A DNA stretch of 10,298 nucleotides, taken from positions 4,506 to 14,803 of the forward strand of contig JBBTED010000052.1 in NCBI GenBank assembly GCA_038042445.1. The letters are read 5' to 3'. The DNA is from Candidatus Firestoneibacteriota bacterium. Its GTDB lineage: Bacteria > Oederibacteriota > D2-FULL-39-29 > JBBTED01. A program made the translations under genes and the position numbers. The notes under the pieces are model-generated. The model ran no database searches, had not been told where the DNA came from, and saw only the letters and a list, made by a program, of their open reading frames with translations. Shown piece after piece: positions 1 to 5,228 of the stretch. Position 1 is the stretch's first letter; every line of letters begins with the position of its first letter.

Positions 1-699
1 CGCAATATCTTTTTTAGCCACTCCGCCTTTTGAAAAAGTCAGTAATCCCATAAATGGTTTGCCGGCATCCGCACGCTCGGCAATCACTTCAGCGGCGGTA
101 TAACCATGAGTCGCGTAATGAAGTTTATTTTGTACAATCTTGAAAAATTCTATTGATTCGGTGGATTTTGGATCATAATCTTGACTGGTCGCATACAAAT
201 CAAGCACTTGGCGATATAAAACCTTTTCACTACTACGGATATCACGAATACGATCGAGCAGTTCATGCCAATATTTACCCCCTCCGCTCTCTTTGAGAAA
301 ATCGTCATTCATTGTAAAACCTTTGCGAATATACTCATTCAAACGCTGAGTTGCCCAAATACGAAAATTCGTAGCAATGCGGGATTTAATACGGTATCCA
401 AGTGAAATAATCATATCAAGATTGTACAGGTTCACGCCTATTGTCTGGGTTTTTCCCTCTATCGCACCGTGCTTAGTGGTTGTTCGGAATTTCCGAACAA
501 CCACTTTCTCATCCAATTCACCGTCGGAGAATATATGTTTAATGTGTCCGCTAATATTGGCTTTACTGGATTGATACAAATCCACCAGCTGTGACTGGGT
601 AAGCCAGACTGTATCATCTTCCAAACGAACATCAATTTTTACCGCATTGGCTTCGTTTTGATAAATTATAATTTCACTATTTGGTTGGTTATTTTTCAT
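1..699 (-). CDS. rhuM: RhuM-family (virulence RhuM / DNA-binding) protein, 3' end runs off the window
   Basis: Not in the ORF track because there is no stop in the window. ATG at 699, 5 bp after the hsdM stop, open to position 1: MKNNQPNSEIIIYQNEANAVKIDVRLEDDTVWLTQSQLVDLYQSSKANISGHIKHIFSDGEL...YNLDMIISLGYRIKSRIATNFRIWATQRLNEYIRKGFTMNDD...ELLDRIRDIRSSEKVLYRQVLDLYATSQDYDP...VQNKLHYATHGYTAAEVI. These blocks are characteristic of RhuM, and rhuM genes commonly sit inside type I R-M loci. Confidence 0.9.
   Translation of the reverse strand, partial: MKNNQPNSEIIIYQNEANAVKIDVRLEDDTVWLTQSQLVDLYQSSKANISGHIKHIFSDGELDEKVVVRKFRTTTKHGAIEGKTQTIGVNLYNLDMIISLGYRIKSRIATNFRIWATQRLNEYIRKGFTMNDDFLKESGGGKYWHELLDRIRDIRSSEKVLYRQVLDLYATSQDYDPKSTESIEFFKIVQNKLHYATHGYTAAEVIAERADAGKPFMGLLTFSKGGVAKKDIA
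475..505. repeat. Perfect inverted repeat (15-bp arms, 1-nt centre) inside the rhuM coding sequence
   Basis: AGTGGTTGTTCGGAA-T-TTCCGAACAACCACT; the arms are exact reverse complements; encodes about VVVRKFRTTT on the minus strand. Confidence 0.95.
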
Positions 700-704
700 A
701 TAAT

Positions 705-2279
705 TTATTTAGATTCAATATCCTCAACAATCTCGTCAATCGCCGCACGGAGTTCGCTTTGCCGTGCGACTATTTTGGCGATTTTTGCATTGAGCGTAGT
801 GATATCTACCACTTCGCGCGTATCTTCTGCCACGACATAACTTGAAACGGCGATGTTGTAATCGTTCTCGGCAATGGTTTTATTATCAACAAGCTTGGCA
901 AAGTATTCGGCGTTTTTGCGGGCTTTGAATGCTTCCAAAATCTTGAGGCGGTTTGTCTCACTCAATTTATTTTTATTGCCACCACGAACAAACTCAGCCG
1001 AAGCATCAATAAAAAAAGTTTTGTTATCTTTCTTGCTTTTCTTAAGAACAATGACGCAGGTGGCAATAGTCGTCCCAAAAAAGAGATCAGGCGGAAGTTG
1101 GATCACAGTATCAATGTAGTTGTTATCTACCAGATATTTACGGATCTTCTGCTCCGCGCCGCCGCGATAAAGCACTCCGGGAAATTCAACAATCGCCGCC
1201 GTGCCGCTGGTGGAAAGCCATGAAAGCATGTGCATAGTAAAAGCAAGATCAGCCTTGCTCTTGGGTGCCAAAACTCCTGCTGGTGAAAAGCGCGGGTCGT
1301 TGATGAGAAGCGGATTACTGTCGCCTTCCCACTTGATGGAATACGGCGGATTGGAAACTATCGCGTCAAAAGGCTCATCATCCCAGTGCTTTGGATCGGT
1401 TAGCGTATCACCGTGGGCGATATCAAAATGATTGTAATTAATATCATGCAAGAACATGTTTATACGACAAAGATTATAGATAGTGAGGTTGATTTCCTGT
1501 CCAAAGAACCCTTGCCGCACATTTTCTTTGCCGAGGACTTTAACGAATTTTAGGAGCAAAGAACCAGAACCGCAAGCTGGATCGTAAACCTTGTTCACTT
1601 CTTTTTTGCCAACCGTGGTGATCTCAGCAAGAAGTTCGCTGACTTCCTGCGGGGTGAAAAATTCCCCGCCTGACTTTCCTGCATTTGCGGCATACATAGT
1701 CATCAAAAATTCATATGCATCACCAAAAGCGTCTATCGTATTATCGTAGTAATTTCCAAGTTTGAGGCCGCCGATAGATTCAAAAAGCTTGGCGAGTCTC
1801 TGATTGCGTTTTTCTACCGTTTGTCCCAGTTTATTGGAATTTACATCAAGATCATCAAACAAACCCTTAATATCATCTTCACTGTCTGCGCCTTTGGCAG
1901 AATTTTCAATATTACTAAAAACGGCAGTAAGGGTTTCATTAAGGTTGGCGTCGTTGCGGGCATTTTTTTGAACATTCACAAAAAGATGGCTTGGTAAAAT
2001 ATAAAAACCTTTTTCTTTTACGGTATCGGCTCGACCGAATTCAGCTTCTTTATTAGAAAGCGTGACATAGTCAAAATCTTTTTTACCCGCACGGCGTTCA
2101 TCAGCATTGATATAATTGGTCAAATTTTCACTAATGAAACGATAAAAGAGTATCCCGAGCACATACTGCTTGAAATCCCAGCCGTCCACACTACCGCGCA
2201 GATCATTGGCGATCTGCCAGATGGCGCGGTGCAGTTCAGCACGTTCCTGCTCTTTGGTTGTGTTGTGATTATTTGCCAT
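705..2279 (-). CDS. hsdM: Type I restriction-modification system methyltransferase subunit M (N6-adenine)
   Basis: 524 aa. HsdM N-terminus (LHRAIWQIANDLRGSVDGWDFKQYVLGILFYRFISE), GKSGGEFFTPQEVS, SAM-binding motif I VYDPACGSGSLL, catalytic motif IV VSNPPY, GVLYRGGAE. Confidence 0.97.
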   Translation of the reverse strand: MANNHNTTKEQERAELHRAIWQIANDLRGSVDGWDFKQYVLGILFYRFISENLTNYINADERRAGKKDFDYVTLSNKEAEFGRADTVKEKGFYILPSHLFVNVQKNARNDANLNETLTAVFSNIENSAKGADSEDDIKGLFDDLDVNSNKLGQTVEKRNQRLAKLFESIGGLKLGNYYDNTIDAFGDAYEFLMTMYAANAGKSGGEFFTPQEVSELLAEITTVGKKEVNKVYDPACGSGSLLLKFVKVLGKENVRQGFFGQEINLTIYNLCRINMFLHDINYNHFDIAHGDTLTDPKHWDDEPFDAIVSNPPYSIKWEGDSNPLLINDPRFSPAGVLAPKSKADLAFTMHMLSWLSTSGTAAIVEFPGVLYRGGAEQKIRKYLVDNNYIDTVIQLPPDLFFGTTIATCVIVLKKSKKDNKTFFIDASAEFVRGGNKNKLSETNRLKILEAFKARKNAEYFAKLVDNKTIAENDYNIAVSSYVVAEDTREVVDITTLNAKIAKIVARQSELRAAIDEIVEDIESK

Positions 2280-2545: not shown

Positions 2546-4126
2546 TTATCTTATGAATATTGGGTTTGAAACGAGTATACTGCCGTCACTTATAGCATCA
2601 AATCTATAGTAATTTAGACCATTATTTAAAGGATTGTTATCTGTGTAATTTATTTCTTCGCCTGTAATAGTATTAAACGTTTTAATTACTTCACCATTTT
2701 TAAACAAACGAATCTCAATCGGGTAATTCATATCAGATGTTATTTTTATTTTTATCAATGGCGATTTGCTCACAGTAATTTCTTCGCCCATATTGGCTTT
2801 ATTTTCACCATCATTCACAGAAAAATGGACAAGGTCAAGATATACTATGTTTTTTTGGAAAGCATACATAGAACCAGATTTTAATGCCTGCAATACTCCA
2901 TCTTTAGTTTTTTCTTTCGCAAATAGAATTGTAAAAATTGAACCTATAGAATTTCCACCTTCATATTCTAATTCACCTATTGCCCATACAGGCTTTTTTC
3001 TCTCACCACGGCAATATTCTAAAAGTATCTTATCCCAAATACCTTTAGGCTGACAAATAATTTTATAGCCCATTGAAAGCGCAGAAAAACCTGTCCATCC
3101 ATCTGTAGCAAGTAAATAATCTGTATATTTTGGAGTAAGTATTTTAAGCCATCCAATATTAACCAAATAATCTGCTTCAGGATGTGCCCAAAAAATTAGC
3201 CCTCCTTTTTCAGATACGTAATTTATTAAATTCTGATATGGAGATTCTCTTTTGTCTTTGTGATACTGATCAAATTCAAAATGTTTATACGGATAATTAT
3301 TTATTGCAAAAATTAAACTTATTACAATTACTACACCTCCTAATGGTCTGATAAAATGTCTTTCAACAATAAAAGCGCGGTCTTTATATGTTATATGTTT
3401 GACTTTTGGCAATAAAAAAATCCAGATTCCAAGCACTAAAAAAAATATTGGAGAAAATTTTAGCAAACTGTACAAATCATACCTGCCTGCATTCCTGTTT
3501 GAAACAAGCGGTAAATTCCTATAATCCACTGAATTGTCTAACCCTAAAACTAATAAATGTTTATTCCATTCATCAACTGATAGATTTCTTTTAAAAAACG
3601 AGCCTTCCCAATAATAAAATGGCGATGATTCAGCACCTGCAATTATTATTACATCACTATATTTTTGGCGAACTTCATTAATATCCTCAAGATATTTAGC
3701 TGGACCATATTTAAGTATAGAGCCTTTCTCCACTGTTTTTTTAAATACATTTCTAAAAGGCAAAATACCATATTCCCATTTCATAATGTCATGGTCAGTA
3801 AAAAATACTACATCTATATTTTTTTCTCTTGCAAGTTTAGCAATATAATCAAAAGAATTGGCTTTGTCAGAACTTACAGATGAATGAACATGAATAATTG
3901 CTTTTAATTTTATTGGTGTATTTACAGACTCAACTATTGAATAATTTATAAATAGAAAAATGAAGAACCCTGCGTAAACAAGAATCCAGATGGTTTTGTT
4001 TTTCCTGGATTCCCACTCCCTGTTTAAAGCATACAGGGACAAGCTTCGTGGGAATGACTTGACAATTCCCTGTAACACGCTACAGGGAATTATCAAGTCA
4101 ATTAGAATAAGTAAATAAAGAATCAT
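2546..4126 (-). CDS. Membrane-anchored PHP-fold metallohydrolase (CehA/McbA-like) with internal TM hairpin and C-terminal beta-rich domain
   Basis: 526 aa. PHP motifs AIIHVHS..SD, FFTDHD, GAE, KHLLVLG, WAHP; two internal hydrophobic segments (PIFFLVLGIWIFLLP, GGVVIVISLIFAI); C-terminus YYRFDA...SNPIFI typical of this group. The ATG is preceded by GAGGAG and overlaps the GT4 3' end. Confidence 0.75.
   Translation of the reverse strand: MILYLLILIDLIIPCSVLQGIVKSFPRSLSLYALNREWESRKNKTIWILVYAGFFIFLFINYSIVESVNTPIKLKAIIHVHSSVSSDKANSFDYIAKLAREKNIDVVFFTDHDIMKWEYGILPFRNVFKKTVEKGSILKYGPAKYLEDINEVRQKYSDVIIIAGAESSPFYYWEGSFFKRNLSVDEWNKHLLVLGLDNSVDYRNLPLVSNRNAGRYDLYSLLKFSPIFFLVLGIWIFLLPKVKHITYKDRAFIVERHFIRPLGGVVIVISLIFAINNYPYKHFEFDQYHKDKRESPYQNLINYVSEKGGLIFWAHPEADYLVNIGWLKILTPKYTDYLLATDGWTGFSALSMGYKIICQPKGIWDKILLEYCRGERKKPVWAIGELEYEGGNSIGSIFTILFAKEKTKDGVLQALKSGSMYAFQKNIVYLDLVHFSVNDGENKANMGEEITVSKSPLIKIKITSDMNYPIEIRLFKNGEVIKTFNTITGEEINYTDNNPLNNGLNYYRFDAISDGSILVSNPIFIR
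3969..4058. repeat. GTCATTCCC...GGGAATCCAG-type palindromic element with nested hairpin, plus a decayed inverted partner copy
   Basis: Outer stem ATTCCCAC (4009-4016) / GTGGGAAT (4048-4055); inner stem TCCCTGT (4017-4023) / ACAGGGA (4033-4039); GAATCCAG (3982-3989) is inverted to CTGGATTC (4005-4012). Resembles the widespread GTCATTCCCGCG-N-GCGGGAATCCA repeats (Rickettsia RPE / Neisseria dRS3-like ATTCCC...GGGAAT). Confidence 0.75.
4055..4100. repeat. Long hairpin with 20-bp arms (1 mismatch) and 6-nt loop; MITE/REP-like
   Basis: TGACTTGACAATTCCCTGTA-ACACGC-TACAGGGAATTATCAAGTCA. The single mismatch is a U-G wobble in the minus-strand transcript. Confidence 0.9.
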
Positions 4127-5228
4127 AAAGCTCCTCTGTTTTTTTTACCATTTTATCTATGCTAAAATTTTCCGACCAAATCAACGCATTCTTTGACATA
4201 AATGTATAGAGTTTTTCATCAGTTAATAACTTAATAATTGCATCTGACAAAGCTAAAGAATTTTTAGGCTCTACCAATATACCTGTTTCACCATCTTTTA
4301 CTACTTCGGGAATACCTCCCACCCTTGTTGCTACTACAGGCAAACCACACGCTTGAGCTTCCAGTAAAACAAGCCCCATCCCTTCATTTAATGAAGAGAG
4401 CACAGCTATTTTACATTCCGATAAAATTTGTAAAACATCATCACGTTCCCCTAAAAAAATTATATTAGAAGACATATTAAGTTCTTTAACTTTCAATTCC
4501 AGTGTTTGTCTTAAATAACCATCTCCAACAATAATTGCCTGTGTCTCTGGAACCTTTTTAATAATTTCTCTCATCGCCTCAAAAAAATAAATATGCCCTT
4601 TTATCGAAACTAAACGCCCAACAAAAACAATATTTTTTGTAGCGGGCGAATTACTATTCGCCTTTTGCATCCTAAATCGCTCAAGATTTATTCCGTTTGG
4701 TATTATTACAAATTTATCATCAGTTCCTATATTAAGTTTTAAATGATCTTTTTTTTCAAGCTCTGTAAATACAATTATTTTAGTACTAAATTTAGATGCA
4801 AATCTTTCTAAAACAATAAAAAGCTGTGATTTTAAATAGTTAAAATATCCGTAAAACATATGTCCATGTGGGGTATGAACTATTTTAGGAATTTTTGCTA
4901 ATCTAGATGCAAATCTCCCAAGAAATCCTGTTTTAGAAGTATGTGTATGAACTATCTGAAATTTTTCGCGCTTGAAAATTTTATACAACTTCCACAATAC
5001 TATCATATCCTTAACAGGATTAATTTCTCTGGTTAATTCAGGAACATATATTATTTTAATTTTGTGTAATAATGCAATTTCTTCTATTTTCTCCTTTGTC
5101 TTGGCAAATGGGGCAAGAATTAAAGTGATTTGATATTTTTCTTTATTTAATTTTGATATAAGCGCCACCAAAATATCATAAGTACCACCCGGCTCAATTC
5201 TTGTTATTACCTGTGCTATTTTAATCAT
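4098..5228 (-). CDS. Glycosyltransferase family 4 (GT-B fold)
   Basis: 376 aa. IVHTHTSKTGFLGRFA, HTPHGH, IPNGI, FVGRLVSIKG, and the EX7E motif EGMGLVLLEAQACGLPVVATRVGGIPEVV. The start overlaps the radical SAM stop (TAATG). Confidence 0.95.
   Translation of the reverse strand: MIKIAQVITRIEPGGTYDILVALISKLNKEKYQITLILAPFAKTKEKIEEIALLHKIKIIYVPELTREINPVKDMIVLWKLYKIFKREKFQIVHTHTSKTGFLGRFASRLAKIPKIVHTPHGHMFYGYFNYLKSQLFIVLERFASKFSTKIIVFTELEKKDHLKLNIGTDDKFVIIPNGINLERFRMQKANSNSPATKNIVFVGRLVSIKGHIYFFEAMREIIKKVPETQAIIVGDGYLRQTLELKVKELNMSSNIIFLGERDDVLQILSECKIAVLSSLNEGMGLVLLEAQACGLPVVATRVGGIPEVVKDGETGILVEPKNSLALSDAIIKLLTDEKLYTFMSKNALIWSENFSIDKMVKKTEELYDSLFTYSN

Follow-up and report, generated by a model that had tools for sequence, protein, structure and literature searches.

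In a 10,298-nucleotide stretch of contig JBBTED010000052.1 from a Candidatus Firestoneibacteriota bacterium (hereafter the window, meaning the whole stretch that was analyzed), the gene of a PHP-domain protein, P0001 (526 aa; 2546..4126, minus strand), carries near its 5′ end 132 nt of hairpin-forming DNA composed of repetitive extragenic palindromic (REP) elements. The modules of this DNA belong to a multi-copy family of the host genome. P0001 is longer at its N-terminus than its homologues, its start codon is homologous to theirs, and its open reading frame (ORF) is intact. The explanation that we consider probable is that a REP composite was inserted in frame at the overlap between an upstream glycosyltransferase gene and the PHP gene, that it is read through from the ancestral start codon, ATG 4126, and that the predicted export topology of the protein was kept. 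The evidence for this explanation is presented below, starting from the structure of the repeat DNA.

The repeat DNA corresponds to residues 10–53 of P0001 (bases 4099–3968, minus strand; 132 nt, 44 residues, DLIIPCSVLQGIVKSFPRSLSLYALNREWESRKNKTIWILVYAG), and it contains no stop codon. The original prediction, which was made from the sequence alone, had described 44 stop-free codons of hairpin DNA there; the translation, the inverted repeats, and the RNA fold all agree with this description. The largest inverted repeat is 20 nt long and 95% complementary (arms 4055–4074 and 4081–4100). Perfect 8-nt arms are also found: one pair (4009–4016 and 4048–4055; ATTCCCAC and GTGGGAAT) encloses a nested TCCCTGT/ACAGGGA hairpin, and another pair is located at 3982–3989 and 4005–4012 (GAATCCAG pairing with CTGGATTC). 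The RNA fold of 3950–4130 (minus strand) reached −60 kcal/mol, as compared with −36.1 ± 4.3 kcal/mol for 200 shuffled sequences (z = −5.56), none of which folded as well. Of the six possible reading frames of this DNA, five contain stop codons, and the remaining one is the frame used by the PHP ORF; a given frame is open in 18% of random genomic 132-mers and in 6% of mononucleotide shuffles. A search of Rfam gave no family at its gathering score. Three weaker matches (rli36 with 28.7 bits against a gathering score of 50, STnc400, and rli38), all under their gathering scores, were rejected as chance matches to hairpins.

Along the minus strand, the composite begins with an outer hairpin, referred to as A (4055..4100; core CCCTGTAGC..TTACAGGG), which was found by the inverted-repeat scan, has a 20-bp stem, and encodes DLIIPCSVLQGIVK. 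It is followed by REP unit 1 (4005..4058), which has the tag (A)GTC, the stem ATTCCCAC at 4055–4048 pairing with GTGGGAAT at 4016–4009, a 31-nt loop with the nested hairpin at 4039–4017, and the tail CCA at 4008–4006; this unit encodes SFPRSLSLYALNREWES. A spacer between the REP units (3989..4004) encodes most of RKNKT. The last module is REP unit 2 (3966..3988), a degenerate inverted partner that is composed of TGG, the stem ATTCTTGT, the loop TTAC, and GCAGGGTT and encodes WILVYAG(F). By visual comparison with the family form CTGGATTCCTGCTTTCGCAGGAATGAC, unit 2, which reads CTGGATTCTTGTTTACGCAGGGTT, carries T in place of C at two positions and A in place of T at one; its terminal AATGAC, including the GAC tag, is lost or changed. 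It still forms a 6-pair hairpin in the predicted RNA, in which the sense-strand stem pairs through G-U. The boundaries of the insert are uncertain by about 3–6 nt: on the left, 4100, 4099, and 4097 are the candidate positions, and on the right, the edge falls within 3969 (the end of GCAGG) to 3962; 4099–3968 and 4097–3966 are each 132 nt long. The stop codon of the upstream glycosyltransferase (TGA, 4100–4098) adjoins the outer hairpin or supplies its first bases. In the other three copies of the outer hairpin, the first bases are (A)CTTGAC, and TAA, TAA, and TGA come before them; the TGA of the window may therefore be native rather than donated by the insert. The 20-bp hairpin begins 27 nt past the A of ATG 4126, a position outside the footprint of an initiating ribosome.

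The occurrence of the repeat family was examined in the host genome (2.81 Mb, 31.9% G+C, 181 contigs). Dispersed copies had been anticipated in the original prediction, and this expectation held for the modules, which are multi-copy and occupy 97 loci, but not for the exact 132-nt composite, which is single-copy in the genome: a BLAST search there for copies of the whole element gave the window copy and short module matches only. The spacer and partner (45 nt) are 87% identical to C87:17522-17566. Membership in the family became apparent with nhmmer: when the window element was the query, its bases 46–140 matched C22:17407-17505 (E = 1.6e-06) and C102:10504-10603 (E = 2.2e-06), and further matches were C87:17520-17572 (4e-05), C116:12848-12918 (5.5e-03), and weaker copies. 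The family is a two-hairpin element of the form GTCATTCC-stem-loop-GGAATCCAG, spacer, CTGGATTCC-stem-loop-GGAATGAC. Its motifs are far in excess in the genome: for GGGAATCCAG, 95 occurrences were counted where 1.2 were expected, and for GTCATTCCCGC, 59 where 0.2 were expected. A pattern search found 37 full two-hairpin elements (dimers) of 69–194 nt, and a hidden Markov model (HMM) built from 28 elements gave the 97 distinct loci mentioned above at E < 0.01.

Single REP units were then counted with a pattern consisting of NGTC, an 8-bp stem starting with AT, a loop, and the second stem strand. There are 124 such units, with the tags TGTC (109 units), CGTC (12), and AGTC (3), and the tail CCA follows in 101 of them. 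The loops are 4 nt long in 37 units, 5 nt in 19, 8–9 nt in 63, and at least 11 nt in 5; a loop of exactly 9 nt is found in 54 units (e.g., ATGTAGTAA). In the five units with loops of 11–31 nt, the loops contain nested hairpins, and hence insertion of one unit into the loop of another seems to occur. The unit in the window is the only one of the 124 with a 31-nt loop and a nested hairpin, and C22:17400-17504 shows the same nested variant; the window stem ATTCCCAC/GTGGGAAT, in which all eight pairs are formed, is present six times in the genome. The outer hairpin is of a second kind (CCCTGTAGC..GCTACAGGG) and is placed directly 5′ of a GTCAT[TG]CC unit at all four of its real loci, namely, the window, C21:10824, C67:24078, and C128:1488; the remaining three of the seven loci given by the pattern were unrelated matches. 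The order of outer hairpin, REP1, spacer, and REP2 recurs in an element with three copies. This recurrence indicates that the insert is a composite and not a chance pile-up.

The family also extends beyond this genome. In four groundwater runs, contigs from elsewhere stack on exactly 4005–4058, where the summed word depth is 260–300 in run X1, against 8.3 in the flanks, and 17–36 times the flanks across the four runs. The community thus contains this nested-hairpin variant in abundance beyond the present genome. When one genome of each species was scanned for a hairpin with an 8-bp stem and a CCAG tail, at least 128 stretches were obtained, and the lineages among the matches listed were Proteobacteria (including Neisseria), Dehalococcoidia, Planctomycetes, Nitrospirales, candidate-phyla-radiation bacteria, and a Nanoarchaeota bin.

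Two further candidates for REP DNA read in frame were seen in the genome. At C87:12786-12843, a REP unit and part of the spacer are read as residues 130–149 (RALLCLITKKTLDSQLLGND) of a 374-aa GT9 heptosyltransferase-like ORF (L162, ORF 309-1433, minus strand), which has about 28 unmatched extra residues around the REP-coded stretch in comparison with 3tov and 1psw. A single REP hairpin at C96:16488-16529 is in frame as residues 258–271 (VIPECFYRESKKRF) of a 960-aa ORF (L163, 218-3100, plus strand).

Clarification of the start codon was obtained from related genomes. The PHP gene was found in four of the 40 relatives searched, three of one genus (G001, G007, and G011) and one of another family (G005). 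In all four, a 376–380-aa GT4 glycosyltransferase gene precedes the PHP gene, ends with ..LYEN[IL]*, and overlaps it by 14 nt, and the ATG of the PHP gene is embedded in the Leu-Tyr-Glu codons of the glycosyltransferase (TTGTATGAA). In the window, the upstream gene is likewise a GT4-family glycosyltransferase gene (376 aa; 4098..5228, minus strand; Pfam Glycos_transf_1, E = 1.7e-44), and ATG 4126–4124 lies within its Leu-Tyr-Asp codons (CTTTATGAT). This same placement makes ATG 4126 the positional homologue of the family start. A Shine-Dalgarno-like AGGAG, read from the sequence acagAGGAGctttATG, is situated 4 nt upstream of it (4131..4135, minus strand). The native codons 1–9 (MILYLLILI; 4100..4126, minus strand) overlap the 3′ end of the glycosyltransferase gene. 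Codons 54–78 (TTC TTC ATT ... ATT ATT) contain no ATG, GTG, or TTG, so the statement in the original prediction that no in-frame start exists between the repeats and the first HxH motif is correct. In-frame TTG, GTG, and TTG codons exist at positions 11, 17, and 29, all inside the insert, and, unlike ATG 4126, none of them is preceded by a Shine-Dalgarno-like purine run. The further statement of the original prediction, that any standard start must read at least part of the repeat DNA, is borne out accordingly.

The lengths of the N-terminal regions were compared using the 38 best of 133 database homologues. The first metal-binding motif of P0001 is HVH (residues 79–81; 3884..3892, minus strand), as seen in the translation and the alignment. 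The first catalytic His column is preceded by 19–49 residues (median 35.5) in all 38 homologues and by about 33–36 residues in the four relatives, as compared with 78 residues in P0001. The difference 78 − 44 = 34 is the family-typical distance, and the gap of about 44 residues that had been foreseen in the homologues is thus observed. The homologues start with a classical signal peptide, which is followed by E-(E)-Y-I-Q-V-P and the His motif. The native stretch that remains after the insert (FFIFLFINYSIV, followed by ES; 3932..3967, minus strand) aligns with the h-regions of their signal peptides and coincides with a Kyte-Doolittle peak centered at residues 53–59; it is too short to act alone and has no start codon. 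The homologous start, the extra length, and the need for a signal together place the insert inside the gene. When the 44-aa peptide was compared with longer database proteins, only P0001 itself was found, and a search of shorter database proteins for N-terminal fragments (region 1–170) of close relatives gave 14 candidates, none scored. The insert is not an assembly artifact, since a 262-nt contig from an independent study (run X5, record 18) spans 3870–4131 with no differences; no joints or indels were reported in the four runs.

The gene does not appear to be decaying, contrary to one of the outcomes that the original prediction had named as fatal to itself. P0001 runs over 526 codons without a frameshift or a stop, retains all 30 invariant columns of a 39-sequence alignment, and has residues in the 34 nearly invariant columns as well. 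It has a Pfam PHP domain (PF02811, E = 8.2e-08, 33.2 bits against a cut-off of 26.4), and its AlphaFold2 model has a mean pLDDT of 89 and a pTM of 0.81; the top Foldseek matches of this model are the PHP phosphoesterases 3e38 (E = 2.7e-09) and 2anu (E = 1.3e-07). With the PHP fold and the N-terminal HxH motif, P0001 can be classified as a PHP-domain metal-dependent phosphoesterase.

The effect of the insert on the N-terminus was predicted as follows. The Kyte-Doolittle profile has two N-terminal peaks with the insert (centered at 10–16 and 53–59) and one without it (10–17); once the insert is removed, a single peak is thus regained, and its distance to the catalytic His is the one typical of the family, just as expected from the idea that one hydrophobic N-terminus was interrupted. 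The net charge is −1 for residues 1–22, +4 for residues 23–44, and 0 for residues 45–65. RKNK is followed by 21 hydrophobic residues (45–65) with a Kyte-Doolittle peak of 2.06, and no clear AxA cleavage site was seen. The N-terminal helices in the AlphaFold2 model are 2–12 and 15–23, followed by a loop and a long helix of 31–68. Farther downstream, two internal hydrophobic helices (225–237 and 259–276 in the model) flank a loop (241–259) with a charge of +3, which suggests that both halves of the PHP fold are on the outer side. P0001 is thus predicted to have two hydrophobic helices around a +4 loop, with both halves of the enzyme outside the membrane and its export retained.

These results can be assembled into a course of events. 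A composite of small non-autonomous palindromic repeats, i.e., an outer hairpin and a dimer of CGTC/TGTC-tagged REP units of which the first has a nested hairpin and the second is degenerate, would have landed where the glycosyltransferase and PHP genes overlap. Its insertion would start at, or 1–3 bases after, the stop codon of the glycosyltransferase, the usual location of REPs. Because the genes overlap, the end of the glycosyltransferase corresponds to codon 10 of the PHP gene, within the hydrophobic core of the signal peptide. Because the length of the insert is a multiple of three and the insert is in its sole open frame, translation from ATG 4126 would pass through the repeat DNA and add about 44 residues. 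Helix 1 (residues 1–22) would then consist of 9 native and 13 repeat-coded residues, the basic loop (residues 23–44, net +4) would be wholly repeat-coded and cytoplasmic by the positive-inside rule, and helix 2 (residues 45–65), with 9 repeat-coded and 12 native residues, would take the PHP domain outward as the signal peptides of the homologues do. The insert would be tolerated or useful. By chance, an insert would be in frame and free of stops with a probability of about 0.1 (1/3 for a length that is a multiple of three × 1/3 for an open sense frame), and selection for the open frame is suggested only modestly.

Several points weigh against this explanation. The topology is based on a 19-residue Kyte-Doolittle scan and the positive-inside rule; the N-terminal 40 residues of the model have a pLDDT of 55–68; and helix 1 includes Asp10 and Pro14. 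The nearest homologue is 42% identical, and the gap rests on the length of the signal peptide, not on a residue-level alignment. The HMM of canonical elements did not match the window copy at E < 0.01, which means that this copy is a divergent member. No target-site duplication was seen at the insert junctions (TCTAATTGA|CTTG and GCAGGGTT|CTTC), and the right terminus is degenerate, so the insert lacks the terminal inverted repeats with target-site duplication that characterize a miniature inverted-repeat transposable element (MITE). No insert-less allele was found in the four groundwater runs, and the exact boundaries and the ancestral sequence are therefore reconstructions. No RNA runs carrying the stretch were listed.

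Three other explanations were considered. If the insertion abolished the export of the PHP protein or the function of its gene, the intact appearance of the ORF would merely reflect how recent the event is, and the open frame would be a matter of luck, for which the above chance of about 0.1 leaves room. The core of the signal peptide is indeed split, with Asp and Pro within its first hydrophobic stretch, and the copy is identical in the runs of two studies (X1 and X5). In run X6, record 30, from a related strain with 15 differences over 4100–4530, ceases to match exactly at 4100 and continues with 43 unlike bases, suggesting a young or variable junction; however, X6 has no cover of 3500–3991, and the break may be one of gene content, not an empty site. 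On the other hand, the sequence of the partner REP has moved away from that of the family, and its terminal tag is gone, as would not be expected of an insert that arrived very recently; the conserved columns and the unbroken frame speak for a working gene, and in the predicted topology the PHP domain is still exported. Loss of function is thus unlikely. A start within the repeat DNA, at TTG codon 11, GTG codon 17, or TTG codon 29, would turn the first hairpin into an untranslated leader and leave a single signal peptide, e.g., M-SLYALNREWESRKNK-TIWILVYAGFFIFLFINYSIV; codon 29 in particular would give a classical n-region plus h-region. A caution of this kind has been published for REPs in general: in the passages concerned, Di Nocera et al. 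note that, as translation may begin farther downstream, many of the REPs assigned to N-termini may lie outside the coding region (PMC3733652). In the present gene, however, only ATG 4126 has a ribosome-binding motif and a positional homologue in the four relatives, and the internal candidates sit inside or between stable stems. Such a start is accordingly very unlikely, and even with it the n-region and half of the h-region would be repeat-coded.

The third explanation is that the element acts mainly as RNA or DNA, stabilizing or processing the glycosyltransferase mRNA or uncoupling the overlapping genes, and that its coding is a by-product. The REP cluster starts at the stop codon of the glycosyltransferase, the RNA fold is strong, and the partner REP retains its sense-strand pairing through G-U pairs, all of which are consistent with such a role. 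Nevertheless, no terminator-like sites were found in 3700–4400 (0 against 0.2 expected), no Rfam family was matched, and a frame that is open in only one of six cases needs a coding constraint. As the main role of the element, this is rather unlikely; it can coexist with the in-frame insertion that we favor.

The original prediction went beyond an in-frame insertion and proposed that a replacement signal or anchor may have arisen from selfish DNA. In its boldest form, this would mean that the repeat DNA has become the working export signal, in which the REP-coded RKNK and half of a membrane helix orient the PHP enzyme. This reading is possible but doubtful. RKNK is the sole positive cluster ahead of the exporting helix; the first nine native residues have none, and the relatives start with MKIF(K/R). 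In the partner repeat, the Pro→Leu and Ala→Val changes from the family form fit a membrane helix and weaken the DNA palindrome. The partner may have lost its proline and its palindrome after insertion while the open frame was kept. It may also help that REP dimers, in one frame combination, encode a basic (SFPRKRESR-like) and then a hydrophobic (WIPAFAG-like) peptide. Three observations weigh against the reading. One is that both changes are C→T changes in a genome with 32% G+C. Another is that the same changes occur in the copy C27:32887 (CTGGATTTTTGTTTTC), so that mutation bias alone would explain them. The last is that the sense-RNA stem of the partner still pairs through G-U. If the reading were true, it would document a step by which selfish hairpin DNA gives rise to a topogenic (signal-anchor) sequence.

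The PHP family is also unusual in itself. P0001 consists of the N-terminal anchor, a PHP phosphoesterase fold that is split by two hydrophobic helices (residues 222–277) around the +3 loop, and a C-terminal beta-sandwich (about 390–526). For the sandwich, Foldseek shows a resemblance to the lipid-binding UNC119/PDE6-delta fold, with E = 1.5e-04 to 2e-03 and a TM by target of about 0.3–0.35. The PHP gene always adjoins a GT4 glycosyltransferase gene, and one homologue, P0060 (875 aa), is a single protein with GT4 domains and a PHP part; the existence of the overlapping pair also as a fusion supports a functional link of the two. The PHP gene of the window is followed at its 3′ side by a gene for the type I restriction-modification methylase HsdM (705-2279) and then by a RhuM-family gene (1-699). 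The gene at this position in the relatives is one that we take to be WbqC-like, naming it from its N-terminal sequence. As the relatives carry another gene there, the polysaccharide cluster appears to end at a mosaic junction in the window.

In-frame palindromic repeats are among the few bacterial routes to new protein sequence without gene duplication, and most of the described cases occupy loops or tails. The Rickettsia palindromic elements (RPEs), on which Ogata et al. worked in 2000 and 2002 and Claverie and Ogata in 2003, are reportedly inserted in frame into genes of functional proteins, where they invariably remain readable, and RPE-1 is said to be a longer, Rickettsia-specific element located on protein surfaces. 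The insert in the window resembles an RPE in that it lies in an ORF, in frame and stop-free, and in that the segment is missing in the homologues. It differs from RPE-1 in being a REP dimer with an extra hairpin, outside Rickettsia, and in a membrane-targeting segment. The likeness to RPEs drawn in the original prediction holds at the level of the CGTC/TGTC-tagged REP superfamily, which, according to the passages of Di Nocera, De Gregorio and Rocco (2013, BMC Genomics 14:522, PMC3733652), includes RPE-4 and RPE-6 of Rickettsia as well as dRS3 of Neisseria; the insert is not an RPE in the narrow sense.

According to the passages of the same paper, CGTC-tagged REPs have the tag CGTC (TGTC or CCTC allowed), a stem of 8–9 bp with A-T pairs in positions 1–2, a loop of 4–5 nt, and a tail fitting CCA, and they mostly form dimers (PMC3733652). 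The units of the present genome share with this description the TGTC/CGTC tag, the 8-bp stem starting with AT, the CCA tail, the inverted dimers, and a copy number of tens to hundreds, and they have 4–5-nt loops in 56 of the 124 units and 9-nt loops in 54. The unit in the window agrees with it in the stem (8/8 pairs), the tail (GGGAAT-CCA-G, 4008–4006), and the dispersed copies and inverted dimers, its partner being located at 3988–3966. It departs from it in the tag AGTC, which is outside the variants listed in those passages, in the 31-nt loop with the nested hairpin, in the extra outer hairpin, and in the host, an uncultured groundwater bacterium with 32% G+C. The spread of the hairpin pattern found by our scan is also wider than the five phyla given there in 2013. 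These passages further report REPs that are read in frame within genes of several species, clusters encoding 43–82 aa, an excess of REPs at the N-termini of ORFs, for which the caution mentioned above was raised, and expressed R. conorii proteins with N-terminal RPE-1 (PMC3733652). A search by terms of those passages and supplement rows gave no description of a site in a signal-peptide core.

Another comparable system is that of the QMITEs of Coxiella burnetii, small hairpin MITEs over gene ends that, in the parts of Wachter et al. (2018, PMC5896051) concerned, donate stops or in-frame residues, e.g., the 33 C-terminal residues of EnhC. They are of another sequence family, and the effects described in those parts are at 3′ ends or in hypothetical ORFs; the terms "signal peptide," "transmembrane," and "N-terminal" each have zero occurrences in the main text. 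The literature searched, most subscription journals being outside its scope, yielded no paper that deals with palindromic repeats within a signal peptide or a membrane anchor. The protein-coding insertion of CGTC-type REPs, including N-terminal cases, is already published behavior (Di Nocera et al. 2013), and the window at present supplies one more instance, from a groundwater bacterium about which little is known. This instance stands apart in its site: the usual REP position at the end of the upstream gene, yet in the signal-peptide core of the next gene. On paper, the repeat turns this core into a two-helix anchor and leaves the membrane side of the enzyme unchanged. If this is true, a targeting sequence can take up an insertion of this kind and can even be reconstructed from it, and where two genes overlap, REPs that land at the end of the first can reshape the beginning of the second.

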